A stretch of DNA of 64,000 nt from Actinomycetota bacterium (lineage in GTDB: Bacteria; Actinomycetota; JAHEXW01): positions 28,832 through 92,831 of the forward strand of contig JANXYU010000032.1 of assembly GCA_025355855.1 (NCBI GenBank). Reading direction: 5' to 3'. The notes under the pieces were generated by a model. The model saw only the letters and a program-made list of their open reading frames with translations, was not told the DNA's origin and made no database searches. Shown piece by piece: positions 3,591 through 60,800 of the stretch. The stretch's first letter is position 1; every line of letters begins with the position of its first letter. The position numbers and the translations under genes were made by a program.

Positions 3591-4349
3591 CTACAGACTC
3601 TTGGCGACGGCCTCAAGAATATCATCGGGAATATCGAAATTGGCGAAAGCTTCCTGGACATCGTCGTGATCGTTAAGCGCGTCTAACAGTCGCAAGACCT
3701 TGCGCGCGCCGGCCTCGTCCAACTTAACCGTAGTCGTCGGAATCATTGTCAGATCAGCTTCGTCAAACGGAATATCGTGTTCGCCAAGATAGGCGCGCAC
3801 CGCGGCGAAAGCGGCCGGTTCCGTGATGATCTCATAATGGTCTTCGGAAATCTCGACGTCATCGGCGCCCGCGTCAATAGCCGCTTCCATCATTTCTTCT
3901 TCCGATTTGCTGGCGCTCTTAGGTACAAGGATGACCCCTTTTTTATTGAACATCCAACCGACACTGCCGATCTCGCCCAGGCTGCCGCCGGAACGGGAAA
4001 AGATATTACGCACGTCGGAGGCGGTACGATTGCGATTGTCGGTCAATACGTCAACCATGACAGCGACACCGCTCGGTCCGTAGCCCTCATACATGATCTC
4101 TTCGTAGTTGACACCCTCCAGCAAGCCGGCGCCACGCTTGATCGCCCGCTCGATGTTTTCGGCCGGCATACTGGCCGCTTTGGCTTTTTCTATGGCCGTC
4201 GTCAAAGCTGCATTGTTCTTGGGATCGCCGCCGCCCTCGCGAGCCGCTACGGTTATCGCGCGCACCAGCTTGCTGAACACCGCGCCGCGTTTCTGGTCGG
4301 TCGCTCCCTTTTTATGCTTGATCGAGGCCCATTTTGAATGGCCGCTCAC
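3591..4349 (-). CDS. yebC: YebC/PmpR family DNA-binding transcriptional regulator
   Basis: The GHSKWASIKHKKG signature is present. The start was reassigned to GTG at 4347-4349, preceded by AAGGAGG with a 7-nt spacer. Confidence 0.9.
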   Translation of the reverse strand: MSGHSKWASIKHKKGATDQKRGAVFSKLVRAITVAAREGGGDPKNNAALTTAIEKAKAASMPAENIERAIKRGAGLLEGVNYEEIMYEGYGPSGVAVMVDVLTDNRNRTASDVRNIFSRSGGSLGEIGSVGWMFNKKGVILVPKSASKSEEEMMEAAIDAGADDVEISEDHYEIITEPAAFAAVRAYLGEHDIPFDEADLTMIPTTTVKLDEAGARKVLRLLDALNDHDDVQEAFANFDIPDDILEAVAKSL

Positions 4350-6013: not shown

Positions 6014-7135
6014 TTAGCCGAGAGTAATATCCCAGCTAGAAGGGATGATTTCTATCCAAGTCTGGCCCCGGTTAAACGTGATCGGCTGGCCGTTGTCATC
6101 GATGAACATGGTTCGGGAGGACGCGTCCGCTTTGGTCCAGCGACCGGTCACCGCTTGGCCGTCACGCAGAACGACTGCTTTGCCTTCGCCAATCAACTGC
6201 ATGACGTCACGCCCGCCCAACCCGTACTCTTCGCCGAAGTCCGAGGAATCATAATCGACATACATGATTACAACGTTCTTAGGCGCGATCTGAGCACCGG
6301 TCGGTTTGTCGAGGAACGGCTCATCCTCAACGTAACGCAGATACTTATTAGTCGCCTTGTCATAGCTATAGCTGCAAGCGCATTGGGCGCCGTAGGGTAT
6401 CTTGACCGAAGTAATCTTGCCGGCTCCGGGTTGGGCGGACTTGAACTTCCACGCATCAATAGAAACGGTTTTTTCAAGGCCTTCGGCGGCGGCCGTTTTG
6501 TGTAGCCGCTCAGTTGTCGTATAAACGTTGTGCGGAGCGTCGCGGTCGGCACTTCTCCAATAGGTGTCACCGAACGCGAACTGGTCCAAGTCCGCCAAGG
6601 TGGAGGTCTTCGCTTCCATCCAGGCGTCCGACCCGCCGACATGCGCAAATATGGCGTCATATTCGGCGGCGAATGTCAGGTCCTGAAGACGCCCGCTGCG
6701 CACGGGTCCGATTTCCTCAACGTCACGGCACCAGAAAACGGCCGCGAAACGCGTTATGCCGCCTTCTGCCATGGCTTCGATAACGACGTCGGCTTTGTCC
6801 AGCCCCGACTGCGGGCGCGCGTCGGGATGGTTTTCCACCTTGATCAGTATTGGCCGGCGCTTTAGCATGGAAGCGTCGCTGACAATGCTTCCGTCCAGAG
6901 GGCAGACGGCAACGGGTTTGGGGGCGCTGACTTGGGCGGGAAGAGCCAGCCGAAGCCAACCTGCCAGGACATGGCCGTCAAAGAAATAGAAGTAGACCGC
7001 CGCTCCGCCGACGACCGCCAGCATAAGCAGGATGCTTAGGCTGATCAATAACGGCTTCTTGGCTCGTTTCCGGCGACTGCCGCCATCGGAGGCGACCTTA
7101 CCTGGCCCTCGCGCCGGGCTGTGTTTACCTGCCAT
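6014..7135 (-). CDS. DUF3048 domain protein (YerB-like, membrane-anchored)
   Basis: N-terminal basic region plus a TM anchor, then the DUF3048-typical stretch PILIKVENHPDARPQSGL...ITRFAAVF. Confidence 0.6.
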   Translation of the reverse strand: MAGKHSPARGPGKVASDGGSRRKRAKKPLLISLSILLMLAVVGGAAVYFYFFDGHVLAGWLRLALPAQVSAPKPVAVCPLDGSIVSDASMLKRRPILIKVENHPDARPQSGLDKADVVIEAMAEGGITRFAAVFWCRDVEEIGPVRSGRLQDLTFAAEYDAIFAHVGGSDAWMEAKTSTLADLDQFAFGDTYWRSADRDAPHNVYTTTERLHKTAAAEGLEKTVSIDAWKFKSAQPGAGKITSVKIPYGAQCACSYSYDKATNKYLRYVEDEPFLDKPTGAQIAPKNVVIMYVDYDSSDFGEEYGLGGRDVMQLIGEGKAVVLRDGQAVTGRWTKADASSRTMFIDDNGQPITFNRGQTWIEIIPSSWDITLG

Positions 7136-8402: not shown

Positions 8403-8795
8403 CTATTGCGCCGGTGTTGCTGGCGCCGCCGGAGTCGTCTCGGTGCTGTTGTCCGGCACGGTCGTCGTTCCCTTCTCGTACCCATAACCGTGGTAGCCGC
8501 GCATCATTCCCTGACCGTAACCGCTGGCCCCGCGATCGCATTCACTCTGACCATAACCGCTCATCATTCCGGCGCGGCCGTGCTCGCCGTCGAACCGGTC
8601 GGAAATCTTGCCTGCGATAACGCCGCTAACAAAAGCCGACGCCAGCAAAAATAATCCAATCAAGAGCCCGGCGATCATCTTGTAACTGCCGTGTGTGCCG
8701 CACATGCAGTGGGGGTGATGCGCCGACTCAGCCGGAGCCATCATTACAGGGCCCGGGGCCGCCGCTGCGGCCATGTCGTCCGTCTTTCTTGGCAT
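8403..8795 (-). CDS. small single-pass membrane protein with a His/Cys/Met-rich N-terminus and GYG/Met-rich C-terminus (putative metal-binding)
   Basis: The internal ATG at 8795 is preceded by AAGGGAGG. Sequence features are HHPHCMCGTHG, one TM helix, and SGYGQ / MMRGYHGYGY repeats. The plus-strand ORFs overlapping it are treated as artefacts. Confidence 0.5.
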   Translation of the reverse strand: MPRKTDDMAAAAAPGPVMMAPAESAHHPHCMCGTHGSYKMIAGLLIGLFLLASAFVSGVIAGKISDRFDGEHGRAGMMSGYGQSECDRGASGYGQGMMRGYHGYGYEKGTTTVPDNSTETTPAAPATPAQ

Positions 8796-12943: not shown

Positions 12944-13845
12944 TTGTGTCCTTCGTAGGCCTGGCTGTCGCGATCGACATCGCGGTGACGCAATATTACG
13001 TTGTAGTTTTTGGCTTGCAGGAAAGCGAATACCTCTTCCGCCAGCGCGACGGAACGGTGGCGTCCGCCGGTACAGCCGAGCGCGATCGTGAAATGCGTCT
13101 TACCTTCCCGCGCGTAGTTAGGCAGTAAGAACGTCAATAGACTCTCTGTCTTTTTCAAAAAAGTCACAGTCGCTGGCCGCTCAAGAACGAAGCGTTTAAC
13201 CTTCTTGTTCTGTCCGGTTAAGGAACGTAGCGAGTCAACATAATAAGGATTCGGCAGGAATCTGACATCCAAGATAATATCGGCGTCCATCGGGAGCCCG
13301 TATTTGTAGCCGAAAGACATCACGGTAATAGCCAAAGAGGTTGTAAAAACACCCGGGCGAAAGCCGGCCGCCACCTTCTGCTTAAGGTCCTGCCCGCTAA
13401 GATCGGTTGTGTCGATGACGATGTCGGCCGCCGCTTTGATGTCCTCGAGCAACGCTCGCTCGCGATCAACGCCTTCCATAATGTCGCCGCCTTTGGCCAA
13501 CGGATGGCGCCGCCGCGTTTCTTTGAAACGCTTAACGATCGTGGGTGTGTCCGCGTCCAAAAACATTATCCGGTACTCGACCTGGCTCGTCTTTAGTTCA
13601 CGCAGGGACTCCCAGAGCGCGTCGAAGAAATGACCGCCCCGGACATCAGTGGCCAGAGCCACCTTGTTTTTCGGGCTCCCTGGTGTGGCCACCAGCTCGG
13701 CAACCTTCGGAATTAGCGCAGGCGGAAGATTATCGATGCAAAAATAACCCAGATCTTCGAAAGCATGCAGGGCTTCTGTTCGGCCGGCTCCCGACAGACC
13801 GGTGATAATAACGAATTCTACCTTGCCCGTTTTAGACTGCGTCAT
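12940..13845 (-). CDS. rapZ: RNase adapter protein RapZ (YvcJ)
   Basis: 301 aa with the P-loop VIITGLSGAGRTEA and the RapZ C-terminal domain. Confidence 0.9.
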   Translation of the reverse strand: MTQSKTGKVEFVIITGLSGAGRTEALHAFEDLGYFCIDNLPPALIPKVAELVATPGSPKNKVALATDVRGGHFFDALWESLRELKTSQVEYRIMFLDADTPTIVKRFKETRRRHPLAKGGDIMEGVDRERALLEDIKAAADIVIDTTDLSGQDLKQKVAAGFRPGVFTTSLAITVMSFGYKYGLPMDADIILDVRFLPNPYYVDSLRSLTGQNKKVKRFVLERPATVTFLKKTESLLTFLLPNYAREGKTHFTIALGCTGGRHRSVALAEEVFAFLQAKNYNVILRHRDVDRDSQAYEGHK

Positions 13846-47350: not shown

Positions 47351-48709
47351 TCAGCCGACCTTAGGCAGCGACGCGATCGCGCGCGCCTCATCAGCCTCGT
47401 TGTACTCGTCGTCTTCCAGCTTGCCGTTTAGATAGGCATCGTACGCTGCCAGATCGAAGTGGCCATGACCTGTTAAGAGGAAGCAGATATTCTTTTCTTC
47501 TCCGTTTTCCTTGCACCGCATCGCCTCATCGATTGCGGCCTTGATGGCGTGGGCCGACTCGGGCGCCGGCAAGATGCTTTCCGTGTGGATAAACTGCATT
47601 GCCGCCTCAAACACGCCCATCTGCTTAAAGGCCTCGGCCTCGATCACCTTGTCGTGGTACAGGCTGGATATGATCGGGCTGTCGCCATGGTAGCGCAAAC
47701 CGCCGGCGTGGATCGGCGACGGTATAAAGTCGTGCCCGAGTGTGTACATCATGACCACCGGCGCCATCTTGGCTTCGTCGCCGTAGTCGTACGCATATAG
47801 GCCTTTAGTCAGTGTCGGGCAAGAAGCCGGCTCGACCGCGACCAGGCGTACGTTACGCTTGCCGGATAAATTGTCTCGAACATACGGCATGGCCACTCCG
47901 CCGAAGCTTGAACCGCCGCCGACGCAGCCATAAATAACGTCCGGTTCGGTGTCGATCAAAGCGAACTGTTTTTGCAGCTCTTCGCCGATGATCGTCTGAT
48001 GCAGAATCACGTGATTAAGTACACTGCCCAAGCTGTAGTGGGTACCGGGATGAGTCACCGTGTCCTCAACCGCCTCGCTGATCGCCAGGCCTAACGTGCC
48101 GGGATGGTTCGGATAATCCGCCATCGCCGCCCGACCGGCATTGGTTAGTTCACTGGGGCTGGCCACAACTTTAGCGCCATAGGCCTCCATCAACATGTGA
48201 CGGTAAGGCTTTTGGTTATAGCTGGCCTTGACCATGTAGACCATGCACTCCAAACCCATCAACTGGCAAGCCATCGATAGGGCCGAACCCCACTGGCCGG
48301 CTCCTGTTTCCGTCGCCAGACGCGTCGTACCTTCGAGCTTGTTATAGTAAGCCTGGGCGATCGCCGTGTTCGTTTTATGCGAACCGGACGGGCTCCCGCC
48401 TTCATACTTGTAGAAGATCTTAGCCGGTGTGCCCAAAGCCTTTTCCAGCCGGCGCGCTCGGAAGAGAGGACTCGGCCGGTATAACTTGTAGACGTCCAAA
48501 ACCTCTTCCGGGATGTCGATGTAACGTTCGTCGCTCATTTCCTGCTGAATCAAAGCCATCGGAAATAAAGGTGCGAAGTCCTCCGGTCCAGCTGGCTTGA
48601 GTGTCTGCGGGCTGAGCGGCGGCGGCAAAGGCGTCGGCATATCCGGCAGGATGTTGTACCATTTCGTCGGCATATCGCGTTCTTCTAGAATTATTTTTGT
48701 TCTGTCCAT
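47351..48709 (-). CDS. trpB: tryptophan synthase beta chain, TrpB2 type
   Basis: Long TrpB2-type sequence with a PLP-lysine region. The start was reassigned to the ATG at 48709 (MDRTKIILEE...), which has GAAGGAG 6 nt upstream. The track ORF extends 25 codons further upstream into the leader. Confidence 0.9.
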   Translation of the reverse strand: MDRTKIILEERDMPTKWYNILPDMPTPLPPPLSPQTLKPAGPEDFAPLFPMALIQQEMSDERYIDIPEEVLDVYKLYRPSPLFRARRLEKALGTPAKIFYKYEGGSPSGSHKTNTAIAQAYYNKLEGTTRLATETGAGQWGSALSMACQLMGLECMVYMVKASYNQKPYRHMLMEAYGAKVVASPSELTNAGRAAMADYPNHPGTLGLAISEAVEDTVTHPGTHYSLGSVLNHVILHQTIIGEELQKQFALIDTEPDVIYGCVGGGSSFGGVAMPYVRDNLSGKRNVRLVAVEPASCPTLTKGLYAYDYGDEAKMAPVVMMYTLGHDFIPSPIHAGGLRYHGDSPIISSLYHDKVIEAEAFKQMGVFEAAMQFIHTESILPAPESAHAIKAAIDEAMRCKENGEEKNICFLLTGHGHFDLAAYDAYLNGKLEDDEYNEADEARAIASLPKVG

Positions 48710-49120
48710 GTGAATCACTCCTTCAATAGTGGTTGGTTGTTGTGTCTGACTGTTTTGTCTATTGGTTTTGCCATCGTGAATCATGTGTCGTGTAAATGTG
48801 TTTCAACTTGTACCTCCAAAAACAAAAATACCCCGCGTCCCATATTGGGACGAGAGGTATGCTCTCGCGGTGCCACCCAACTTCGTCTTCGGTATCACTA
48901 CCGGAAACCTTTCGACCTCTTCAGGTTGCCCTGGAAGGTCTAGCCCTTGGTAACGGAGGCTGCCGGCAAAGCCTACTGGCTCGTCTCAAGCTTTCGGTTT
49001 GCGTCTCCGGGGCCCATTCGATCGGCGATTTGGTCATTTCCGCTTCCACCATCCGGAACTCGCTATCGCCCTCTACCGACCTACTCTTCCCCATCACAGA
49101 CTTTCGTAGCGCTTATTCAA
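48710..49120 (-). ncRNA. candidate T-box riboswitch leader of trpB
   Basis: The minus-strand RNA contains AAGUUGGGUGGCACCGCGAG, matching the T-box consensus AGGGUGGNACCGCG, at 48863-48882. It is followed by a hairpin (CGUCCCA-AUA-UGGGACG, flanked by GC-rich pairs) and UAUUUUUGUUUUU at 48809-48860. Upstream are GA/K-turn-like UGAUGG and AGAGUAG motifs and UGG triplets in a candidate specifier region. The bulge UGGC implies a tRNA with discriminator G, consistent with Trp. Confidence 0.45.
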
Positions 49121-49434: not shown

Positions 49435-49797
49435 TTGGCGTATCTTCTCTGGTTCATAACTGCTGCATGGGCAACCGTCATCTTCTACTTCTCAACACTG
49501 ACAGGCTCAAACGTTCCCTCTGTGTTGCCCGACTATATCCCGCATTTTATGGAATACGCTATTCTGGCAGGACTTCTTTGGTTCACCGTCCGGGCTACCA
49601 AAAAGCAATTGCCCCCAAGCCTGACCGGCCTGTGGGCAATTTGCTTAACTACTATTTACGCGGCCTCAGACGAGTGGCACCAATCATTCGTTCCCGGTCG
49701 CAATATGGATGTCAAGGACTGGGCTGTCGATACGTTGGCGGCAATCGCCGTCGCTGCGGTAATCGGTTATGTTATAGCTCGACGGTCACGCAAGTGA
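49435..49797 (+). CDS. VanZ family protein
   Basis: 120 aa with 4 TM helices and the VanZ-like conserved D/E and W positions (ASDEWHQSFVPGR). TTG start with GGAGG upstream. Confidence 0.65.
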   Translation: MAYLLWFITAAWATVIFYFSTLTGSNVPSVLPDYIPHFMEYAILAGLLWFTVRATKKQLPPSLTGLWAICLTTIYAASDEWHQSFVPGRNMDVKDWAVDTLAAIAVAAVIGYVIARRSRK

Positions 49798-50005
49798 GCG
49801 TACGCGACACGCCGTCGATCTTTTGGATCTTGGCGACAATCAGGTCACCGATGGCGCTGAAATTACTTGCTTCGATGTAGGCAATGGCGTCATAGGGACC
49901 CGTTACGGCGTTGACCATCTTGACACCCTGAATCTTCTCGATCTCTTTGACGATCTCCGTCGCTTTACCGGGTTCCGCGCTGATTAGAACAAAGGCTGTT
50001 ACCAC
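49772..50005 (-). CDS. stand-alone Lrp/AsnC ligand-binding (RAM) domain protein
   Basis: 77 aa resembling an AsnC-type C-terminal domain, with no HTH. It sits immediately downstream of hisI at the operon end. Confidence 0.5.
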   Translation of the reverse strand: MVTAFVLISAEPGKATEIVKEIEKIQGVKMVNAVTGPYDAIAYIEASNFSAIGDLIVAKIQKIDGVSRTLTCVTVEL

Positions 50006-50040
50006 GGTTAATCACCCCCCTTTAAACTCGCATTCTATCA

Positions 50041-50361
50041 CTATTGGTCGAGCGTGCGGAAGAAGCAAGACCGCTCGCCAGTATGACAAGCGGCGCCGAC
50101 CTGCTCGACCTTGACTAGCAAGGCATCCGCGTCGCAATCATATCGAATCTCGACGATCTTCTGCGTGTGCCCCGACGTCTCGCCCTTGTGCCAAAACTCC
50201 TGACGGCTTCGGCTCCAGTAGACTGTTTCGCCCATTTCGAGTGTCCGCCGCAAGGACTCTTTATTCATATAGGCTACCATTAGGACTTCGCCGTTGGCGG
50301 CGTCCTGGACGATGGCCGGAATCAAACCGTTGCTGTCGTACTTTAGATCCTTGATGTCCAT
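50041..50361 (-). CDS. hisI: phosphoribosyl-AMP cyclohydrolase HisI
   Basis: HisI core [21 protein letters not shown]...[17 protein letters not shown]. The start was reassigned to the ATG at 50361, which has GGAGG 5 nt upstream. Confidence 0.85.
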
Positions 50362-50375
50362 GTGAACCTCCGTTA

Positions 50376-50454
50376 GGCATGAGCCTTGAGGCATGAGGCG
50401 CGAGTCTGTCTTTTTGCAGCGACGTGGCAAAAGAGCCCACTCATGCCTCGTGCC
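50376..50454. repeat. his-operon intergenic heptamer array, copy a: (GCRTGAG-like)x4 plus an inverted partial copy; hisF-hisI junction
   Basis: The array GGCATGAG-CCTTGAG-GCATGAG-GCGCGAG is followed by an inverted partial copy CTCATGCCTCGTGCC that overlaps the hisF stop. Together they form a GAGGCATGAG/CTCATGCCTC stem. Confidence 0.6.
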
Positions 50455-51212
50455 TATAATCTGACCTCAATGCCATTAGCGTTAAGGTACTCTTTTACCT
50501 GTCGAATGGTTAGCTCGCCGTAGTGGAAAAGACTGGCAGCGAGTACCGCGTCGGCGTTGGCTTCCTCGATTACTTCCAGAAAATGCTCCAACCGGCCGGC
50601 GCCGCCCGACGCGATGACCGGAATGTTAACAGCGTCTGTCACCGCCCGGGTAAGCGGGATATCGTAGCCGTCCTTGGTGCCGTCCCGATCCATACTAGTC
50701 AGCAAGATCTCACCGGCTCCCAAATCAGCGCAACGGCGCGCCCAATCAACCGCGTCGATGCCGGTGGCCGTTCTGCCTCCGTGCAGGAATATCTCCCATT
50801 TACCAGCGGCAGTTTGTTTGGCGTCAATCGCCACCACTACGCACTGACTTCCGAACTTGCTGGCGCCCGCGGTGATGAGCGTTTCATCGTCAACTGCCGC
50901 GGTATTCACGGTGATTTTGTCCGCGCCGGACTCCAGCATGCGGCGCATGTCTTCTAGGTTGCGGATGCCGCCACCGACGGTGTATGGAATGAACACTTTC
51001 TCCGCTGTCCGCCGGGCAACGTCGATCATAATATCGCGTCTTTCATGAGACGCCGTAATATCAAGAAAGACTAGCTCGTCAGCGTCCTGGCGGTCATACT
51101 CGGCGGCCATCTCCACGGGATCGCCCGCGTCGCGCAGCTGTACGAATTCTATCCCCTTGACGACCCGGCCTTCTTTAACGTCCAGGCAGGGAATGACCCG
51201 CTTGGCCAGCAT
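50454..51212 (-). CDS. hisF: imidazole glycerol phosphate synthase cyclase subunit HisF
   Basis: 252 aa with the conserved (beta/alpha)8 HisF sequence. Confidence 0.95.
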
Positions 51213-51944
51213 CTAGCGTGCCGCCTCGATTGCGTCTTGCAGACTAAACGCGCGCTCGTATAAGGCCTTGCCGACAATGACCCCTTCCACGCCGTCGGGC
51301 GCCAGCGCCTTCAGGTTCCGAATATCTTCCAGACTACCCACCCCGCCTGAGGCGGTGATCGGTATGCCGGCGGCGCGTGCCAGAGAACCCGTCGCCTCGA
51401 TATTGGGACCGACCTGAGTGCCGTCCCGAGTGATATCCGTGTAAATCAGCCGGTGTACACCTAAATCAGCCAGCCGCCGTCCTGTCGCAACGACATCTTC
51501 GCCCGTATCCTTTGTCCAGCCTTCGATCGCGACGTTTCCCTGCCGGCCGTCTAGCCCGACGACTATGCGATCGTCGAACATCTCGAGGGCGCGTTGAAAA
51601 AGGGCGGGTTCGGTAACGGCGATCGTACCCAGAACGACCTGGCCGACGCCTGATTCAATCAATTCTTTGATGGCTTCGATCGTACGCACGCCGCCGCCAA
51701 ACTGGACCGGTACATCCAGCACCTGCACGATCTTCGCGACCACGTCGGCGTTGGCCGGTTTACCCCGCCAAGCGCCATCTAAATCGATGACGTGGACGAA
51801 CTCCGCGCCTTGTTTCTGCCAGGTCAGCGCAACCGCCACCGGGTCTTCATCGTAGATGGTTACCTGGTCTTCCTTCCCCTGAAGCAGCCTGACGCAACGT
51901 CCGTCTTTGATGTCGATAGCCGGATAAATAATCATGATGAACAC
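51213..51944 (-). CDS. hisA: 1-(5-phosphoribosyl)-5-[(5-phosphoribosylamino)methylideneamino]imidazole-4-carboxamide isomerase HisA
   Basis: IYPAIDIKDGRCVRL...; GTG start per the track. Confidence 0.9.
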   Translation of the reverse strand: MFIMIIYPAIDIKDGRCVRLLQGKEDQVTIYDEDPVAVALTWQKQGAEFVHVIDLDGAWRGKPANADVVAKIVQVLDVPVQFGGGVRTIEAIKELIESGVGQVVLGTIAVTEPALFQRALEMFDDRIVVGLDGRQGNVAIEGWTKDTGEDVVATGRRLADLGVHRLIYTDITRDGTQVGPNIEATGSLARAAGIPITASGGVGSLEDIRNLKALAPDGVEGVIVGKALYERAFSLQDAIEAAR

Positions 51945-51950
51945 CGGGCA

Positions 51951-51979
51951 GGCATGAGGCGTGAGGCATGAGGCGCGAG
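51951..51979. repeat. his-operon intergenic heptamer array, copy b: GGCATGAG-GCGTGAG-GCATGAG-GCGCGAG; hisH-hisA junction
   Basis: Four tandem 7-nt units lie immediately upstream of the hisA start. The sense mRNA reads CUCAUGC x4 and carries no SD. Confidence 0.6.
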
Positions 51980-51987
51980 TCTGTATA

Positions 51988-52605
51988 TCATTTTACCTCC
52001 AATTCGGCGAAGTTCTGCAGAATACGCAGACCGTTAATACCGCTCTTTTCCGGGTGGAACTGAACTCCGAAGAGGTTGTCTTGCCACACCGCTGAGCAGT
52101 ACTCGACGCCATAAGTAGTGGTGCCGGCGACAATCGCCGGCGACACCGACTGCAAGTCCAGACAATACGAATGTGCCAGATAGAACCGAGAGTTGTCGGG
52201 CACCCCTTCGAACAACGGACAATCGGCCCGACGAAACTTGACATTATTCCAGCCCATCTCGGGGACTTTTACAGAATCAGGGAGCCGGACAATGCTACCC
52301 GGCGTGATGCCCCGTAGACCCGCGTCCGGCGATTCCTCGCTGGTCGCGAAGAACATTTGCAGACCGACACAGATGCCTAAAAACGGTTTGCCGAGCGCGA
52401 TGGTGTCGTAGATGGCTTCGTCTAGACCCTTGGCCTTTACCGACGCAACCGCATCTCCGTACGCACCCACACCCGGCAGGATCACCGCGTCCGCGGCCGC
52501 GACCTCAGCCGGCTCGTCGGTTACTAATGCCTGCGCCCCGACTGCTTCTAGCGCTTTCTGAACGCTTCTTAAGTTGCCGATACCGCAATCGATAATGGCA
52601 ATCAT
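51988..52605 (-). CDS. hisH: imidazole glycerol phosphate synthase glutaminase subunit HisH
   Basis: Class I GATase, MIAIIDCGIGNLRSV, with the catalytic Cys in GICVGLQ. Confidence 0.9.
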   Translation of the reverse strand: MIAIIDCGIGNLRSVQKALEAVGAQALVTDEPAEVAAADAVILPGVGAYGDAVASVKAKGLDEAIYDTIALGKPFLGICVGLQMFFATSEESPDAGLRGITPGSIVRLPDSVKVPEMGWNNVKFRRADCPLFEGVPDNSRFYLAHSYCLDLQSVSPAIVAGTTTYGVEYCSAVWQDNLFGVQFHPEKSGINGLRILQNFAELEVK

Positions 52606-52614
52606 AATCTGTTA

Positions 52615-52643
52615 GGTATGAGGCGTGAGGCATGAGACATGAG
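52615..52643. repeat. his-operon intergenic heptamer array, copy c: GGTATGAG-GCGTGAG-GCATGAG-ACATGAG; hisB-hisH junction
   Basis: Four tandem 7-nt units between the hisB stop and the hisH start, again with no SD on the sense strand. Confidence 0.6.
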
Positions 52644-52647
52644 CAAC

Positions 52648-53280
52648 CTAGAGCGTTCCCTTGGTGGACGGGATTCCTTGCACGCGGGGGTCGATCGATG
52701 TCGCCATATCCAACGCCCGACCGAGACCTTTGAAGATCGCCTCGATCAAGTGGTGCGCGTTATTGCCGGTCGCCAACGCTTGGACGTGCAGCGTCAAACC
52801 CATGTTGGCCGCCAAGCTTTTAAGGAATTCCTCGACCAAAGAGGTGTCAAAAGTCCCGATGAGTTCCACGGGGAGCTCGATATCATAGTTGAGAAGCGGC
52901 CGCCCGCTGATGTCGCACGCCACCAATACTAGACATTCGTCCATCGGCAACAGGCAGCTGCCATACCGGGTGACGCCATGCTTGTTGCCCAGCGCCCGGC
53001 TGATAGCCTCACCGATACAGATGCCGACGTCCTCAACCGTGTGGTGCGCGTCAACTGCCAGGTCGCCGTCCGCCTGAACGGTCAGATCGAAAACACCGTG
53101 CTTTGCGAACAGATCAAGCATGTGGTCGAAAAAAGGGATCCCGGTCGTAATGTCACTGGCTCCGGTTCCGTCCACAGTAAGCGACACTTTGATTTTGGTT
53201 TCCTTTGTTTCCCTGGTTAACGTGGCTTCTCTGGCTTCCATCGATTGCCTCCGGGAACTAGACGGCCTTAATGGCGTCAT
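52648..53280 (-). CDS. hisB: imidazoleglycerol-phosphate dehydratase HisB (IGPD only)
   Basis: IGPD motifs GIPFFDHMLDLF and DAHHTVEDVGI. There is no fused phosphatase domain. Confidence 0.9.
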   Translation of the reverse strand: MTPLRPSSSRRQSMEAREATLTRETKETKIKVSLTVDGTGASDITTGIPFFDHMLDLFAKHGVFDLTVQADGDLAVDAHHTVEDVGICIGEAISRALGNKHGVTRYGSCLLPMDECLVLVACDISGRPLLNYDIELPVELIGTFDTSLVEEFLKSLAANMGLTLHVQALATGNNAHHLIEAIFKGLGRALDMATSIDPRVQGIPSTKGTL

Positions 53281-54283
53281 TTACGTTTAATGATACTATA
53301 TCCGCGCCCTCGCGCTTAAACAGCGTGGTGTCCGCCCGGCGCAGCGGAGAAACGATAATGGCTGACACGAATACAGAGGTGGCATCTAGAACGAGATTAG
53401 CGTTCTTAACAACCAGCAGGTCATCTAGAACGTCACCTATGTACAACGTGACCTTGGCATTCAATGCTCTGGCTAGCTTCACGAGAGCGCCCGGGCGTGG
53501 TTTGCGCATCTCCGGAGCCAAGCCGGAATCATAAGCCACTCTTTCCCAGGGAATCATGTCGAGGAGACCGGCTCGTTCCAGACCAAGACGCGCTTCCTCT
53601 TCCGTCCGCCCGGTAAGAATACCCACTTTAGGAAGCCAAGGCTCGAGTAAGGCCGGATCGATCATAATGCGTTCATCGTTGAGCAAACCCTTACGTTTGT
53701 TGAAAGTGGGCACATGTCCGTACAGACGCTCGCAGTAATCGACGCCGCCATAGATCTCCTGAAACAGCGTTTCTAGCTTGCCCCGGTCATAGAGTTTCTC
53801 AATCCGCCCGCGCTGCTCCTTACTGAGTAGGGGGAACAAAACCGCCATGGCACCATGCATGCCGCCGCCAGCGCGTCCCGCCGCAGCCGTAAAGTCTTCC
53901 AGTGTCATCCCCTCGCGGCGCAAGACATGCGTCTCGCTCGTTTTCAGCAGTTCGGCTTGGGCGAGATAGAACATGACGGCGGCTGAGGATAAATCCCAAT
54001 CATTATTGTAGCCGCCGGCCAACTTGAAAAGCTGGGACTCGCTGGGCGTGACCAGGATTTCGCTACCAGCAAATCCCGCAAAACGGGTTAAGTACAGCTG
54101 AACGGTTTGGCTGATGGCGACACGGAAAGAACCGGCCACATCGATGACGACGCCATCGATGTCCAGAATAATGCTGTCGACCTGGTTGAGCAGACGAGCC
54201 TGATCGATCTTGCCCCAGACGTTACGGCTAAGTCGTCCGTAGCCATCGGTCGAGATGCTGCCGTTGTCGGCGGTGTCACTCAT
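53258..54283 (-). CDS. HAD-superfamily hydrolase within the his operon (candidate histidinol-phosphatase)
   Basis: HAD motifs DIDGVVIDV and GDVLDD. It sits between hisC and hisB, and hisB has no phosphatase domain. The start was reassigned to the ATG at 54283, which overlaps the hisC stop as ATGA. Confidence 0.55.
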   Translation of the reverse strand: MSDTADNGSISTDGYGRLSRNVWGKIDQARLLNQVDSIILDIDGVVIDVAGSFRVAISQTVQLYLTRFAGFAGSEILVTPSESQLFKLAGGYNNDWDLSSAAVMFYLAQAELLKTSETHVLRREGMTLEDFTAAAGRAGGGMHGAMAVLFPLLSKEQRGRIEKLYDRGKLETLFQEIYGGVDYCERLYGHVPTFNKRKGLLNDERIMIDPALLEPWLPKVGILTGRTEEEARLGLERAGLLDMIPWERVAYDSGLAPEMRKPRPGALVKLARALNAKVTLYIGDVLDDLLVVKNANLVLDATSVFVSAIIVSPLRRADTTLFKREGADIVSLNVNDAIKAV

Positions 54284-55362
54284 AACGACTCCCGCAAGGC
54301 CGTGAGGAAGGCGTTGTTTTCCGCCGGAGTTCCGACGGTGACCCGCAAGCAATTGTTCAGACCTGGCTTGCCGTTGAAGTTGCGAATCTGGACGCCCGCG
54401 CCCATCAGCTTGGCAAAAACAGCATCAGCGTCTGTCGCGGTCCGGAACAGAATAAAGTTAGCGCTGCTAGGAAACTGCGTAAGCCCGGCCATTACAGCCA
54501 GTGCGTCCGCCATACGGCCGCGTTCCGCTACAATCTCGTCGACAGCCGTCAAAATAGCTGCTCTGTTTTCCCAAACGACCGTCGCCGCGGCCATGGATAG
54601 CGAGTTCAGGTTATATGGTAATTTGACCTTGTCAAGGGCCGCGATAATGCCGGCGTCCGCGGTGACATACCCAACCCGCGCCGCGGCCAGCCGGAACGCT
54701 TTTGAGAAAGTCTTGACGACCGCCAAGTTTTTATACTTCAATACCAGCGGCAAACAGGTTTGGCCGGCGAACTCACCGTAAGCCTCGTCGACAACGACCA
54801 GGTAATCTCCGCCTCGGCAGACAGCCTCGATCGTTTTTATCGGTATCAAATTGCCGGTTGGATTGTTAGGGCTGTTCAAGAAAACAATTGAGGGTTTCGC
54901 GGCGGCGATAGCCGGCAGTTGAACGCCCGCGTCAAAATCATAAACCGCGTCAAGGTTGGAAAGGACAGTCTCAGTCGCCGCGATTCGAGTCAAGACGCCG
55001 TGCATGCTATAGGTCGGTTCAAACAGCATCGCGCTCCGGCCGGCGCCGCCGAAGGCCAGCAATAGGTTTAAGAGGACCTCGTTGCTGCCGTTTCCCAGCA
55101 TGATATTCTCCGGCGCGACGCCATTACCGTCCGCCAGGCTCCGCCGCAATCCAGTAGCCGCGATATCCGGGTAACGATTGAAATCAATGCCGTCGATCTG
55201 CGCCTGGACGGCGTCGACGACATCAGCCGAGAGGTTCCATGGGTTTTCATTTGAGTCGAGCTCCACCGCGGTGCGCAACAGCGGTACCGCGTATGGCTTG
55301 AGATTTTTAAGGTCATCCCGGACAGGCGGCGTCATCTGCCCGCCCGAATTCTCTTTATTCAT
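54280..55362 (-). CDS. hisC: histidinol-phosphate aminotransferase HisC
   Basis: 360 aa class II aminotransferase with the HisC-typical N-terminal LKPY motif and a PLP lysine region (in FSKAF). Confidence 0.9.
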   Translation of the reverse strand: MNKENSGGQMTPPVRDDLKNLKPYAVPLLRTAVELDSNENPWNLSADVVDAVQAQIDGIDFNRYPDIAATGLRRSLADGNGVAPENIMLGNGSNEVLLNLLLAFGGAGRSAMLFEPTYSMHGVLTRIAATETVLSNLDAVYDFDAGVQLPAIAAAKPSIVFLNSPNNPTGNLIPIKTIEAVCRGGDYLVVVDEAYGEFAGQTCLPLVLKYKNLAVVKTFSKAFRLAAARVGYVTADAGIIAALDKVKLPYNLNSLSMAAATVVWENRAAILTAVDEIVAERGRMADALAVMAGLTQFPSSANFILFRTATDADAVFAKLMGAGVQIRNFNGKPGLNNCLRVTVGTPAENNAFLTALRESL

Positions 55363-56623
55363 CGCTATCCACCCTATGCTCTAAGCTCTTCAGCCGCACC
55401 TCAATCGCCTGGGCGTGCTCGACCAGCCCTTCTGTCTTCGCCAGCACATCTACATCGGTCGCAGCCGCTCGCAGCGCTTCCTCCGAATAACGTATGACAC
55501 TGGTGCGCTTGACGAAATCATGGACGCTCAACGGCGACGCGAACCGCGCCGTACCGTTTGTCGGTAACGTGTGGTTCGGGCCGGCGATGTAGTCGCCAAT
55601 TACCGCTGGGGTAAAACTACCGATAAAGATGGCGCCGGCGTTGGTGATCATGCGAGCGACTGCGTCTGCGTCGTCGCACATGATTTCCAGGTGTTCGGGC
55701 GCGATTATGTCCGAGACGGTCACCGCGTCGTCAATCGTCTCGACCAGAATTATCTTTACGTTTCCCTGGGGCTTAAGAGAGCGAACCCGCTCCGCAAGGT
55801 TCGGACTATCGGTAACAAGAATAGATTGAGCCAACGGGTCATGCTCCGCCTGGGCGCGCATGTCTTGGGCGACGAATTCGGGACGCGCTGTCGCGTCAGC
55901 GATAATCAAAACTTCACTAGGCCCGGCCAGCATATCAATGCCCGCCTGCCCGAATATCTCGCGCTTAGCCATCGTCACATAGATATTGCCGGGCCCCGTT
56001 ATCTTGTCGACCCGGGGGATGGTGGTTGTACCGTAGGCCATGGCGGCAATAGCCTGCGCGCCGCCAACCCGGAAGACTCTATCAACGCCGGTTTCGACGG
56101 CAGAAGCTAATATATTCTCATTGACCTTGCCATTCTTACCCGGTGGCGTGCAGACGACAACCTCCCGAACGCCCGCGACCTTGGCCGGTATGGCGTTCAT
56201 CAGAACCGTCGAGGGATAAGGAAAGCGGCCACCCGGTATATAAAGCCCGGCGCGGTCCAGTGGGGTTACCCACTCCTCGACTAATATGCCATCGTTTTCC
56301 AGCCGCACAGATTCGACCTTAGCGGCCTCGCAAAAGCGGCGAATATTGTCGCTAGAGTGGCGTATAGCAGTTATCCAAGCCTGGTCAGCGTTCTTGTGCG
56401 CCGCCTCCAATTCGTCCCGAGAGACCTCAAAAGCGTCCGGCGCAATCACCGCGCCGTCAAACTTCTGCGTATACTCGGCCAGTGCCGCGTCACCGCTCGT
56501 CCGTACGGCCTCTATCACCTCGCGCACCGCCGGCAAAACAGCGTCGTCAACCAATGGCAGTCGCTCGATTATTTTAAGGACTGCTGCCGGGTCGATTGAC
56601 CCGACCAGCTCAATGATCTCCAT
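55355..56623 (-). CDS. hisD: histidinol dehydrogenase HisD
   Basis: 422 aa with a conserved HisD sequence that includes the Zn-binding His/Asp residues. Confidence 0.95.
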   Translation of the reverse strand: MEIIELVGSIDPAAVLKIIERLPLVDDAVLPAVREVIEAVRTSGDAALAEYTQKFDGAVIAPDAFEVSRDELEAAHKNADQAWITAIRHSSDNIRRFCEAAKVESVRLENDGILVEEWVTPLDRAGLYIPGGRFPYPSTVLMNAIPAKVAGVREVVVCTPPGKNGKVNENILASAVETGVDRVFRVGGAQAIAAMAYGTTTIPRVDKITGPGNIYVTMAKREIFGQAGIDMLAGPSEVLIIADATARPEFVAQDMRAQAEHDPLAQSILVTDSPNLAERVRSLKPQGNVKIILVETIDDAVTVSDIIAPEHLEIMCDDADAVARMITNAGAIFIGSFTPAVIGDYIAGPNHTLPTNGTARFASPLSVHDFVKRTSVIRYSEEALRAAATDVDVLAKTEGLVEHAQAIEVRLKSLEHRVDSDE

Positions 56624-56681
56624 AATACGTCCAGTTTAGCATACTCATAGATATCCTCAGCGGCGAGTGCCGACAGGGGCG

Positions 56682-56918
56682 TTAGGAGGGATGGACAGGA
56701 CCGGATTTGCGATAAACGTAGAGATAATAATTGATAGGCCAGCCTAGGATCATCTGCATCTTATAGCGTTCAGCGACCTCGGGCTCTGAGTCGACCCGTT
56801 TTAGCCAGTCAAATATCATCCAGGTCCAGAGAGCCAGCAGAGCGAATAGTATTATGGTCAGGAGGATGGCTGCGGTTAACAGGATAATCAGGATATTTAC
56901 GGCGGCAGGGTCGAGCAT
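56682..56918 (-). CDS. hypothetical small membrane protein (PLDc_N-like?)
   Basis: 78 aa with two TM helices and a GWPINYYLYVY motif. Assignment is weak. Confidence 0.35.
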   Translation of the reverse strand: MLDPAAVNILIILLTAAILLTIILFALLALWTWMIFDWLKRVDSEPEVAERYKMQMILGWPINYYLYVYRKSGPVHPS

Positions 56919-57814
56919 TAGAACTTATATTTGTTGCGCAGGCGTTCGACTTCGTCATGGGTCTTTTTCTTATGCGCCCGAGCCCGCAAACTATCCCGGC
57001 CGAGTTGTCCCGTTCTAAAAGTCCGAACATCTGCCTTTAACCTATCGCGAGCTGAATGAATAACGCTCTCCCCTTCCGCTCCCAAGGCCTCCAACGTCGC
57101 CAGACCGGCTTGGGTCTCAAATGCGGCCGTTGTTTGCTTTTGCACCACGGTGTAGTCGGACAAGAAACCGACGGTATCTTCATGGAATATCTGCAGGCCG
57201 GGCGGCGGCGAAAGCTTCTTGATAAAGGCGAGCTCTTCTTCAAGGACCGCGTCGCGCTGGTGCAGCGCGGCCGGGTTTACCAGGCCCTGGACGTAGGAGA
57301 CCGCGCGAATGGCCGCGTTCATCTCCATTTCGGCGGTGATGAGTTTGTCAAAATATGCGACCATGGCGTTGGCGTCGGTAACATACATGTCGGTTGCGTT
57401 CAGATAATCGGTGATCTCAGATTGCAGACTTGTTGAGGCATTTGGCGGGGTCGCTTGGTCCGCGAAGCTCTTCTTAATCTTCTTAATTCCGGCCGCGTCG
57501 GTTGCCAGGATCGACGTCCAAGAATCAGCTTCGGCGCGCATTGCTTTGGGGTCGATCTCGTTGGTCAGGGGGTCAGGAGTCTTGGTAAAGAGTTCGGAAT
57601 CCCAGACCTTGTCGGCCTGATTCACGACGATATCGGCTTTCTTAACAATGGGATTAATGCGCGTCGTATACATTTGCACCGCGCTGCGCTCAAAAACCAG
57701 ATAAGCGAGAATGATGACGAGAGTTGCCAGAAACAGAGCGCCAACCGCCATCCCGATGTCGCTCTTCAGCTTGATGCCCTTACCGCGTATGCCGCCCCAC
57801 GAAAACCTAGCCAT
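56918..57814 (-). CDS. hypothetical membrane-anchored protein
   Basis: 298 aa with an N-terminal TM helix and a helical soluble domain. It overlaps the dnaE stop. Confidence 0.4.
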   Translation of the reverse strand: MARFSWGGIRGKGIKLKSDIGMAVGALFLATLVIILAYLVFERSAVQMYTTRINPIVKKADIVVNQADKVWDSELFTKTPDPLTNEIDPKAMRAEADSWTSILATDAAGIKKIKKSFADQATPPNASTSLQSEITDYLNATDMYVTDANAMVAYFDKLITAEMEMNAAIRAVSYVQGLVNPAALHQRDAVLEEELAFIKKLSPPPGLQIFHEDTVGFLSDYTVVQKQTTAAFETQAGLATLEALGAEGESVIHSARDRLKADVRTFRTGQLGRDSLRARAHKKKTHDEVERLRNKYKF

Positions 57815-60800
57815 GTATCGCCTTTTCTCCCAGCAAAGCCTTAACTTCCGCGAACAAACCGCTGGTCGGTTTGACCTTGAAACCTTGCCCTAACTCTAAC
57901 ACAGTTTCGGTATTTTCCCCCATTACCTTGAGGACAACCGGGTTGGTTCCGTTGTGCGCGCCGAGTATCTCTTTAAGGCTGCCGATCGTAGTATCGGTCA
58001 AACCGGCGGTCTCGATAAATATGGTGACCGGACGGCCGGTGTCTCCCCGCCGATCGAGGGCTTTGACCTCGTTGGCAATTAACTTGATCTGGCCGTTGCC
58101 CTCACTAAAACGGCCGCCGCCAGCCGAATCGATGCGACCCCGGACAAGAATGATGGCGTCCTTCTTGATCAAGTCTTGCGCCGCCTGGTAGACCTGGGGC
58201 CACAGCATCACTTCAGCACTGGCTTCCAAATCCTCCAGTGTTAAAACTACGTAAGTCTCACCCTTCTTGGTTTGCTTCTTTTGCTCGGCGGCGATGATCC
58301 CTCCGACCCATTTGATGTCGCCCTCGCGCATATCACGCAGGCCCGCGATGCCGGTATCCGTCTGTTTCTTCAGTGTTTTAGCTAGTCCGTTTAAAGGGTG
58401 ATCGCTGACATAAACCCCGAGCATGTCTTTTTCGTACGCCAGTTTATCCTCTTTCGGCAGTTCGTCGGTGCGGTCAATAACCGCGGGATCGCCGGCCGCC
58501 GCCTTCTCCGTTGCGCCGAATAGAGAATATTGCCCCAGATCGCGATCGCGCTGGCCTTTCAGCCCGGCGTCGACGGTTTGTTCATAAACAGACAGCAACG
58601 ATTTGCGCGTTCCGGCAAAGTCGAACGCCCCCGCCTTGATCAGGCTCTCTACCGCCCGTTTGTTGACAGCCTTTAGATTGACCCGATCACAAAAGTCCTC
58701 CAGCGAAGTGAACTTTCCTTCGCGGCGTGCATCCACGACCGCGTCGACGACGTTATGCCCGACATTACGTACGAACGCCAGCCCGAAGCGAATCGAATCG
58801 CCGACGACCGTGAAGTCGCGGAAACTCTCGTTTATGTCAGGCGGCAAGACGGGTATCTTCATACGCCGACACTCGTTGATGTACTTGATGATATCGTCCT
58901 TGTTACCGCTCACATTGGAGAGCAAAGCGGCCATGTATTCGATAGGATAGTTGGCCTTCAGATAGGCCGTTTGATACGCGATATAGGCATAGCCGGCGGC
59001 GTGCGCCTTATTGAAGCCGTAGCCGGAAAAATGCTGGATATCCTTGAAAATCTTTTCGGCAAGATTCTTGTTATATTCGCGTGCCAGCGCCCCGCCGATG
59101 AAGCTCTCCTTCAGCTCGGCCATCTTGTCAGCTTTCTTTTTGCTTATGCTCTTGATCAGGGTCTCTGCCTGTCCTAAGGAGAACCCGGCGACGATGTTGG
59201 CGCATAACATAATCTGTTCCTGGTAGACCATCATGCCATAGGTTTCGCTTAGCGCCGGCTCTAAATCGGCGTGCGGGTACGTGACTTGTTTCTTCCCCTG
59301 CTTACATTCCGTGAAATCTTTGGCCATGCCGCTGTTTAGCGGTCCTGGGCGGTACAACGCCACGAGCGCGATAATATCCTCGATACGCGTCGGCGCCAGG
59401 TCACGAACCAAATTCCGCATACCGGAACTCTCCAGCTGAAAAACTCCGACTGTCTCGGCTTTACGCAGCATGGCGAAGGTCTTGGCGTCGTCTAGCGGCA
59501 GGGTGTCGATGTCGAGATCGACCCCTTTCGTCCGCTTAACGATCTTGACCGTGTCGTCAATAATGGTCAGGTTGCTAAGGCCCAGAAAGTCGATCTTCAA
59601 CAAACCGATGGCGTCAGCGGAGTCTTTGTCATACTGGACGATCACCCGGTCGTCCTTCTGGCTCAACGGCGCGTAGTTGGGCAGAGGCTCGGGTGAAATA
59701 ACCACGCCGGCGGCGTGGGACGAACTGTGACGTTTCAGTCCTTCGATGGATTTGGCTGTCTCAAAGACGGCCAGCGACGCCTCATCGCGTTCACACATTT
59801 CTCTTAGTTCAGCGGACATCTTCCAGGCCTCTTCCAGGGTTATCCCGATTATGTCCGGCACCATCTTGCTCAGCCTGTCGGCTTGGGCGAAGGGCAGGTT
59901 GAGCACCCGCCCTGTATCCTTGACGGCCGCCTTGGCTTTCATGTTTGAGAAAGCGGCGATCTGCCCGACGTGTTCCTTGCCATACTTGTCGACAACATAG
60001 GCGATGACCTCGTCCCGCCGGCTGTCTTCAAAGTCTAAATCGATATCGGGCAGGCTCTTGCGCTCGGGATTAAGAAACCGTTCGAAAAACAAACCGTAAC
60101 GCATGGGGTCGATGCTGGTGATTCCCAGGACATAGGAAACGATGCTGCCGGCGGCCGAACCGCGGCCTGGGCCGACCCGGATATCCTTCTCCCGCGCAAA
60201 CCGCACAAAGTCTTGGACGATCAGAAAATAGCTGGACAGCCCGCGGTCCATAATGACACCCAACTCCATGTTCAGACGCGCCTCAAGTTCTGGCGTGACG
60301 GGATTGTATCGTTTGGATAGGCCGTCGCGGCAGAGTTTCTCCAGGTAAGTATTGGCGTCAAAGCCGTCGGGCACCTCGAAATGCGGCAGCAGCGTCTGCT
60401 CCAGATCAATCACTACTTGACAAGCGTCGGCTATCTTCAGCGTGTTGGCCAGCGCCTCGGGCGCCTCAGGGAACAGCTTAGCCATCTCGGCCGCGCTCTT
60501 GAGATAGAACTCCTGCGTCGATAGCTTTAGACGGTTCGGATCGTCCAATGAGGTAGCCATTTGGACGCACATCAGAGCGTCTTGAGCGCCCGCGTCCGCT
60601 TTTCTGACGTAATGAACGTCATTCGTTACGACCAAGGGAATATTCGACTCGCTGGCCAGTTTGAGCAAGGCCTTATTGACCGCTTTTTGTTCCGGGATGC
60701 GGTGATCCTGCAGTTCCAGATAGAAATCGCCATTATCGAAGATGTCGCGGTATTCTTCGGCCGCTTCCTTGGCTCGGGCCGTTTGACCATTCATCAGCGC

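Follow-up and report, generated by a model that had tools for sequence, protein, structure and literature searches.

The window analysed here, i.e., a stretch of 64,000 nt from contig JANXYU010000032.1 of an Actinomycetota bacterium (assembly GCA_025355855.1), harbours on its minus strand a histidine biosynthesis (his) operon, three spacers of which (hisB-hisH, hisH-hisA and hisF-hisI) each contain a tandem heptamer array (arrays c, b and a, respectively; Table 1). Each array spans ~28 nt and consists of four 7-nt units reading CUCRYGC on the mRNA strand. The gene identities rest on the Pfam families of the called genes (IGPD, GATase, His_biosynth twice and PRA-CH). All three arrays are intergenic, lying between called genes, and the HisH, HisA and HisI proteins have the same lengths as in related species. 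The nearest named homologue of HisA (GAW91553.1/WP_088553073.1) shares 52 % identity.

A reading of the window made from the sequence alone (the sequence-only reading) had proposed that such arrays occur only in these three his spacers of the 64 kb, and three scans agree with this. Tandem Repeats Finder (TRF) reports period-7 arrays at three sites only, with 3.6–4.3 copies each. The two-unit pattern GCRTGAGGCRTGAG, allowing up to 2 mismatches, yields 11 matches, all of them within the three spacers (1.57 ± 1.22 expected from shuffled sequence; none of 100 shuffles attained 11). When the whole 64 kb were scanned permissively for autocorrelation at lag 7, arrays a, b and c were again the only ones. 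Since the arrays are identical in two further assemblies of the same organism (the Logan assembly of SRR22198310 and GCA_043725015.1; 99.93–99.94 % identity to the window across 8–9 kb), they do not represent an assembly artefact.

Table 1. Features of the array-bearing his junctions in the 64-kb window, in the order of transcription; motifs are given as on the sense strand
Feature	Position	Strand	Remarks
hisB	52648–53241	-	
hisB-hisH spacer (copy c), mRNA			UAG-G-UUG-CUCAUGU-CUCAUGC-CUCACGC-CUCAUAC-CUAACAGAUU-AUG
Mini-ORF c (predicted)	52602–52646	-	TTG...TGA, LLMSHASRLIPNRL; internal ATG gives MSHASRLIPNRL
Array c	52616–52643	-	CTCATGT CTCATGC CTCACGC CTCATAC; 10 nt to hisH ATG (52605–52603)
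hisH	51988–52605	-	
hisH-hisA spacer (copy b), mRNA			UGA-UAUACAGA-CUCGCGC-CUCAUGC-CUCACGC-CUCAUGC-CUGCCCGGUGUUCAUC-AUG
Mini-ORF b (predicted)	51932–51991	-	19 residues; GGAGG at 51996–52000, 4 nt before its ATG
5' flank of array b	51980–51984	-	ACAGA
Array b	51952–51979	-	CTCGCGC CTCATGC CTCACGC CTCATGC; 16 nt to hisA ATG (51935–51933)
Weak residual Shine-Dalgarno motif of hisA	51942–51945	-	GGUG, 6 nt before hisA ATG; aligns with GGAGG of copy a
hisA	51213–51935	-	
hisF	50454–51212	-	
hisF-hisI spacer (copy a), mRNA			UAG-GCACGAGGCAUGAG-(35 nt)-ACAGA-CUCGCGC-CUCAUGC-CUCAAGG-CUCAUGC-CUAACGGAGGUUCAC-AUG
Inverted partial copy	50440–50454		GGCACGAGGCATGAG; overlaps hisF stop codon by 2 nt
Intercistronic hairpin (predicted)	50389–50455	-	Array a units 1–2 with inverted partial copy; encloses a smaller inner hairpin
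5' flank of array a	50405–50409	-	ACAGA
Array a	50377–50404	-	CTCGCGC CTCATGC CTCAAGG CTCATGC
3' flank of array a	50372–50376	-	CTAAC
Intact Shine-Dalgarno motif of hisI	50367–50371	-	GGAGG, between array a and hisI ATG (50361–50359); unpaired in predicted fold
hisI	50041–50361	-	

Alignment of the three spacers reveals that their likeness runs past the heptamers, with ACAGA on the 5' side of arrays a and b, CUAAC on the 3' side of arrays a and c, and an alignable segment comprising the Shine-Dalgarno (SD) motif and its spacer (GGAGGUUCAC in copy a, GGUGUUCAUC in copy b). Because of this flanking likeness, the blocks are regarded as paralogues of one ~45–50-nt cassette, ACAGA-(CTCRYGC)4-CTAAC-(SD)-ATG, and not as three independent expansions of a heptamer.

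The his operons of eight related species, reached via HisA homologues (percentages in the following refer to HisA), show a rapid turnover of the same junctions. Arrays b and c are missing at the tight 7–12-nt junctions of the two nearest relatives: L123 (89 %) has 7 nt (CGCGACC) between hisB and hisH, 12 nt (CAGGAGGGTTTT) between hisH and hisA, and 103 nt with imperfect inverted repeats of different sequence between hisF and hisI, while L250 (82 %) has 7 nt (AACGACC) and 8 nt (GAGGGTTA) at the first two junctions, the third being outside its contig. In L253 (70 %) the respective junctions comprise 4 nt, an overlap, and 81 nt with no array. Other relatives carry heptamers of their own. L125 (85 %) has 7 nt between hisB and hisH, a hisH-hisA insert of 51 nt with CTCGCGR units (CTCGCGA CTCGCGG) between CTAAC motifs and followed by its own SD, and 28 nt with 9-mer repeats between hisF and hisI. 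L254 (68 %) has CTCNCGG units in its hisB-hisH spacer (24 nt, CTCTCAC CTCGCGG CTAACA), (GGTTCAC)x4 in its 61-nt hisH-hisA spacer, and 322 nt between hisF and hisI. In L127 (70 %) the hisB-hisH (123 nt) and hisH-hisA (77 nt) inserts are inverted pairs of heptamer arrays (CKTAGGG with CTCTNGG, and GGTTAG-type with CTAACTR), the hisF-hisI spacer (83 nt) having no array. L251/L252 (70 %) combine 3 nt between hisB and hisH with 152 nt of CAGATAG-type units between hisH and hisA, and 172 nt with 33-nt repeats between hisF and hisI in L252. Across the relatives, the lag-7 signal exceeds those at lags 8–10. Since the junctions are tight in the array-free relatives, the tight state, which is typical of translational coupling, is judged from these comparisons to be ancestral, and heptamer inserts of differing unit sequence have been gained repeatedly. 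In two of these genomes, the heptamer family of the his junctions recurs outside the his operon, i.e., ten CAGATAG-type units at 2787–2861 in L251 and a GGTTAG/CTAAC hairpin at 13175–13245 in L127, the latter in the variable linker of a genuine T-box leader (94.2 bits).

Beyond these relatives, (CTCRYGC)3 is found at no fewer than 120 loci in species-representative genomes, and CTCATGCCTCAMGSCTCAT at no fewer than 120 loci in metagenomes, in both cases across many phyla and in unrelated contexts. Among the matches listed, many arrays are situated at contig ends, form inverted pairs or lie beside other heptamer arrays. The array-bearing loci among the listed matches (1.47 Mb) contain, besides the seed family, 60 and 65 additional arrays of period 7, most of them unique in sequence, and 0–22 arrays for each of the periods 4–6 and 8–12. 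In viral contigs, (CTCACGC)3 occurs at 18 loci, and the composition-matched controls (CACTCGC)3 and (CCTCAGC)3 occur at 40 and 12 loci, respectively. Since matched control heptamers are as common, it is the period of 7 that is special and not the CTCAYGC unit. CTCAYGC was considered as a special pan-phylum motif and rejected on account of these controls and of the co-resident arrays of unrelated sequence.

The viral and proviral contigs (L257–L326) also display exact three-unit arrays of arbitrary heptamers far above 21-mer chance, with several heptamer arrays on single viral contigs, e.g., IMGVR_UViG_3300032160_000019.

Taken together, the three blocks are best explained, with a probability of about 65 %, as heptanucleotide simple sequence repeat (SSR) cassettes of a known class with fast turnover (long simple sequence repeats, LSSR; like short tandemly repeated repetitive sequences, STRR; like the TAACTGA repeats), and not as a conserved histidine-specific regulator. 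Among the candidates listed by the sequence-only reading, the evidence favours the lineage-specific mini-repeat family; an operon-specific translational control is not supported, arrays b and c being absent from the closest relatives and heptamers being generic across phyla. The observations that had been named as counting against such a control were largely made: CTCRYGC arrays in unrelated contexts of many phyla, heptamer families of relatives that extend beyond the his operon, and close relatives devoid of arrays b and c.

Among the long SSRs of many prokaryotes, those with a 7-nt unit were found to be the most abundant, and polymerase slippage has been suggested for their origin (Mrazek et al. 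2007, cited in PMC4679880 and PMC4692102). Tandem heptamers were described early in Calothrix. Both the GGGAATC repeats of Xanthomonas and the GGGGA(T/C)T repeats of Nostoc lie between genes and differ from one close relative to the next, some of them occurring as inverted pairs capable of stem-loop formation; one Nostoc array resides inside an operon, between pecE and pecF (PMC4692102). The his arrays share with LSSR and STRR the period of 7 (with tandem units beyond chance and an excess of this period), the intergenic location, the fast turnover with length and sequence varying at the same site, and the formation of some inverted pairs. They differ from the Nostoc and Xanthomonas repeats in not being G-rich, in being unable to form G-quadruplexes and in having only four imperfect units. 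A literature text search for the tandem CTCACGC/CTCATGC sequence retrieved only unrelated primer matches; thus, the unit is undescribed while its kind is already known.

In marine Beggiatoaceae, cyanobacteria and Bacteroidetes, TAACTGA repeats (MacGregor 2015) are mostly located just 5' of start codons that lack an SD; their function is unknown, a translational role has been proposed, and factors of the S1/Csp/CsrA type were suggested as binders (PMC4679880). The his arrays resemble them in having tandem 7-nt units (2–6 in TAACTGA repeats) in forward orientation a few nt 5' of a start codon, usually with the SD missing, even in essential operons. This likeness is graded among the copies: copy c lies 10 nt from the SD-less hisH, copy b lies 16 nt from hisA with its weak GGUG, and between copy a and the hisI start lies a complete SD. 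The window units are not TAACTGA, although the CTAACTR units of L127 come close. Further differences are the unit itself (CTCRYGC), only three clustered copies seen here versus 169 sets genome-wide, the shared flanks that define a cassette, and the documented absence from the closest relatives.

According to the sequence-only reading, the arrays stand in place of SD sequences. SD strength was assessed as duplex energy against the conserved anti-SD core, amounting to +0.4 kcal/mol for hisH (no SD), -5.5 for hisA, -10.7 for hisI and -9.5 for hisB, with a window median of -7.3 (best start per gene). Hence, the claim stands for hisH with respect to the missing SD and holds by half for hisA, which has retained a weak motif, and the GGAGG of hisI is indeed positioned between array a and the start codon. 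The idea of a replacement fails at hisH: the gene has no SD in array-free relatives either, so that there was no SD at this junction for the array to replace, and the spacer of only 3–7 nt in these relatives implies translational coupling.

As read from the sequence, the sense strand of the repeat contains little G, supplies AUG codons and lacks stop codons whichever frame is read; on the antisense strand, each frame encounters a TGA within three units. Copies b and c are each spanned by one predicted mini open reading frame (ORF). Mini-ORF c starts with UUG 2 nt (or with AUG 8 nt) past the hisB UAG, and its UGA overlaps the hisH AUG (AUGA). The ATG of mini-ORF b overlaps the hisH TGA, and its own TGA overlaps the hisA ATG, in both cases as AUGA. 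Each of the four short array junctions without a spacer SD is bridged by such an ORF, namely junctions b and c of the window and the hisB-hisH and hisH-hisA junctions of L254. The L125 hisH-hisA insert with its own SD is not bridged, nor are the long hairpin-type inserts of L127 and L251. Under a shuffle null, the four bridged junctions have probabilities of 0.39, 0.09, 0.10 and 0.29, respectively (product ~0.001), for a definition of bridging that was set post hoc, after the data had been seen. Indels that are not multiples of 3, including gain or loss of 7 nt, abolish the bridging ORF in silico.

Termination-reinitiation at an overlapping stop and start codon (AUGA) couples translation in trp and other operons. 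The same overlap is found at both ends of mini-ORF b and at the 3' end of mini-ORF c, and in array-free relatives the cistrons are 3–12 nt apart or overlap. The mini-ORFs, if translated, could pass the coupling on to hisH, which has no SD, and to hisA with its weak one. Unlike the known cases, such a relay would proceed via a repeat-made ORF of 14–19 codons, an arrangement not described for the his operon.

One may speculate that selection acts on this very relay. The cassettes would then be kept for their bridging mini-ORFs as slippage-tunable couplers, and the gain or loss of one 7-nt unit would switch off the downstream cistrons, 7 being 1 modulo 3 so that a single unit breaks the relay. 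The bridging of all four short junctions without a spacer SD, the in silico loss of the ORFs upon indels, the stop-free orientation of the arrays and the tight ancestral junctions (3–12 nt or overlapping) agree with this proposal. However, the null probabilities of the individual junctions are not small (0.09 to 0.39), the copy number is identical in the three assemblies (though from near-identical strains), the long inserts of L127 and L251 are unbridged, and phase-variable histidine biosynthesis would offer no obvious benefit. In addition, slippage is expected to be rare, because the units are imperfect and only four in number. Overall, selected couplers are unlikely, and it is equally doubtful whether heptamer cassettes in coupled junctions survive only in the stop-free orientation and phase that yield a bridging mini-ORF relaying ribosomes to SD-less cistrons. 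If this held true, the repeats would represent slippage-tunable couplers of polycistronic translation.

With respect to RNA structure, the copies differ. The sense RNA of copies b and c folds worse than shuffled sequences (z +1.5 and +2.1), 190 of 200 and 200 of 200 shuffles, respectively, folding at least as well. For copy a, the 111-nt sense RNA has a minimum free energy of -37.5 kcal/mol (z -1.9), and its complementary strand one of -42.2 kcal/mol (z -3.5). The sequence-only reading had noticed the inverted partial copy at the hisF stop codon, which is indeed overlapped; the stem is predicted to comprise 15 pairs with two internal mismatches instead of the assumed 10 bp. An intrinsic terminator at this hairpin was considered and dismissed, as neither strand carries a U-tract and no terminator-like match exists at the arrays.

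A hairpin right after a stop codon calls to mind repetitive extragenic palindromes (REP) and bacterial interspersed mosaic elements (BIME), the intercistronic palindromes of enterobacteria, in which each unit is itself palindromic. That the blocks stabilise or process the mRNA in the manner of such elements, allowing differential expression within the operon, would fit the repeats between cistrons, the strong predicted hairpin of copy a directly downstream of hisF and the many arrays elsewhere that form inverted pairs. It is nevertheless very unlikely: the his heptamers are direct repeats, a hairpin is predicted for copy a alone and depends on the extra inverted copy, shuffled sequences are more structured than copies b and c, no terminator-like site exists at the arrays, and the hairpin sequence is not conserved in the relatives.

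The period of 7 nt also places a fixed triplet at regular distance, CUC on the mRNA and GAG on its complement, directly 5' of start codons. Together with a conserved 77-aa AsnC/RAM-domain gene that follows hisI wherever the region was recovered in relatives, this might indicate a periodic binding site for a protein controlling his expression, either a ring of the TRAP or HutP type or an S1/Csp/CsrA-type factor. TRAP (MtrB) binds 9–11 (G/U)AG triplets with 2–3-nt spacers on the regulated mRNA, and HutP sites comprise six UAG triplets in two groups of three, spaced by 4 nt and located on the mRNA ahead of a terminator. Each his array contains only four GAG triplets, 4 nt apart and located on the complement of the his mRNA, and there is neither a UAG triplet set nor an adjacent terminator-like site. 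The TRAP/HutP likeness put forward by the sequence-only reading thus fails on strand and triplet number, for TRAP also on spacing and for HutP on triplet sequence. Searches with the covariance models of Rfam 15 across 49900–57900 (E ≤ 1) gave no match, and at the gathering threshold the whole window contains one T-box and one tRNA only, both away from the arrays. Moreover, the nearest relatives possess the 77-aa gene but no arrays, the heptamers of the other relatives are unrelated, and 165 arrays elsewhere exhibit no orientation bias relative to neighbouring genes, as judged by a crude longest-ORF heuristic for the flanks. A protein-binding site is therefore regarded as highly improbable.

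Antisense SD mimics or an antisense transcript, likewise suggested earlier, were considered as well and abandoned: no promoter-like site was detected on the antisense strand in 49900–53400, Rfam yields no match, and GAGG is situated only 1 nt from ATG.

The cassette nature of the blocks raises the question of a small non-autonomous mobile element, resembling miniature inverted-repeat transposable elements (MITE) or the small dispersed repeats of cyanobacteria, which would insert at start codons together with its own SD. The flanks shared beyond the heptamers and the homologous 3' SD-spacer segment are in line with such an element, as are the ATGAT on both sides of the copy b insert (a possible 5-bp duplication), the ATGATA at the beginning of mini-ORF b that matches the hisA start of L123, and the CTCGCGG-CTAAC motif at different junctions in L125 and L254. 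On the other hand, the cassette ends ACAGA and CTAAC are not complementary, so that terminal inverted repeats as in MITEs are missing, a flanking duplication is confined to copy b and not seen at copies a and c, and no transposase gene is nearby. Since the units also drift as in ordinary microsatellites and arrays of arbitrary heptamers are equally common, a mobile element is quite unlikely.

Returning to SSR cassettes of a known class, the following sequence of events is the most likely. A cassette was copied into the three his junctions at which reading frames do not overlap; slipped-strand or ectopic events between adjacent junctions probably account for the copying. Effects at the RNA level are by-products of the repeat sequence. 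Copies b and c form, as shown by folding, unusually unstructured spacers, each crossed by a predicted mini-ORF that runs from the preceding stop codon into an AUGA at the next start; terminating ribosomes could thereby be relayed to the SD-less hisH and to hisA with its weak GGUG. Copy a would pair with its inverted partial copy to an intercistronic hairpin, leaving the hisI SD free in the predicted fold. The cassettes would be near-neutral, being tolerated since ribosomes are relayed or start in an unstructured leader, rather than acting as regulators.

Several points weigh against this explanation. LSSR are characteristically dispersed over a genome; in the ~71 kb of the source genome covered (the window plus a ~7-kb extension in L256, the latter with no arrays), arrays a–c all lie in the his operon, which leaves room for a his-restricted spread of the CTCRYGC cassette in the source species. 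At these same junctions, five of the eight relatives also carry heptamer arrays, which could reflect selection at those sites rather than tolerance. As to a copying route, there are no terminal inverted repeats, and a possible 5-bp duplication (ATGAT) is seen at copy b only. Finally, the bridging-ORF statistic is of modest weight, as its definition is post hoc and a stop-free, AUG-rich repeat favours such ORFs anyway.

The apparently operon-specific motif would thus turn out to be a generic, fast-evolving heptamer microsatellite, which is mainly a clean negative result. At the same time, closely related uncultured species differing by 35–150-nt repeat inserts in tightly coupled junctions represent a natural experiment, and the inserts of the relatives, including one in a T-box leader, indicate where insertion is tolerated. 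The spacers also suggest a route for the expression of SD-less cistrons, i.e., ribosomes reading a bridging mini-ORF through a spacer devoid of structure and stop codons, and they add to the still unexplained preference for 7 nt in bacterial intergenic tandem repeats.

Further repeats were observed in the relatives. The T-box leader of L127 (13001–13329) is located upstream of trpE; between its Stem III and antiterminator, ~94 nt are inserted, composed of inverted heptamer arrays (GGTTAG-type with CTAAYWR-type) of a family shared with its hisH-hisA spacer. In L251 (8414–8476) and L252 (1357–1419) the start of the CAGATAG-type array lies within hisH, and repeat units (CTAGCAG CTAGCAA ATAG) supply the final codons and the stop of this gene. 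The 172-nt hisF-hisI spacer of L252 (3079–3250) contains a ~33-nt unit, TCCCTGAGCTTGTCGAAGGCAACACAAATGG, that is repeated in tandem about three times and is of a different kind from the heptamers. L254 carries (GACCGGG)x4 at 6539–6578 in the coding 3' end of hisD, just before the overlapping start of hisC. An ORF of ~29 codons encoding a hydrophobic peptide overlaps the hisI start in the hisF-hisI spacers of L127 (11485–11574, MICTGLKLVIAVFVLLAVFLLFRRSYEPR), L253 (11483–11572) and L254; it appears conserved by eye in L253 and L254 (68–70 % relatives) and is not found in the window.

Elsewhere in the window, a T-box leader (48843–49106, minus strand, 96.4 bits) precedes a PALP-family gene (47351–48784); in L123, (GAACCAW)x4 is present at 8424–8466, ~30 nt before the start (8496) of the orthologue of this gene. 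Taken alone, this leader, the strong AAGGAGG-type SDs of the window and the 52 % HisA homologue would be compatible with a Bacillota-like lineage. Upstream of a gene starting near 4349 (GTG), the segment 4350–4395 (minus strand) contains a perfect 9-bp hairpin, CUCCUUGUA-AUCC-UACAAGGAGG, which would sequester the AAGGAGG SD. It follows a direct 9-mer repeat, CCUUGUACU/CCUUGUAAU (TRF: AGGAGTACA x2.4), and similar units, (GAGTACAAR)x3, are found in the hisF-hisI spacer of L125.

Two neighbours of the his genes may be mentioned. The gene directly downstream of hisI (49772–50005, minus strand) encodes a stand-alone AsnC/Lrp ligand-binding domain of 77 aa (RAM, PF01037), the presence of which does not co-vary with the arrays; the protein could be an amino-acid sensor of the operon. 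A HAD-like hydrolase of ~341 aa (weak PF00702 match; 53258–54283, minus strand) is encoded between hisC and hisB in all relatives, overlaps hisC by 4 nt, and may be the histidinol-phosphate phosphatase of this lineage.

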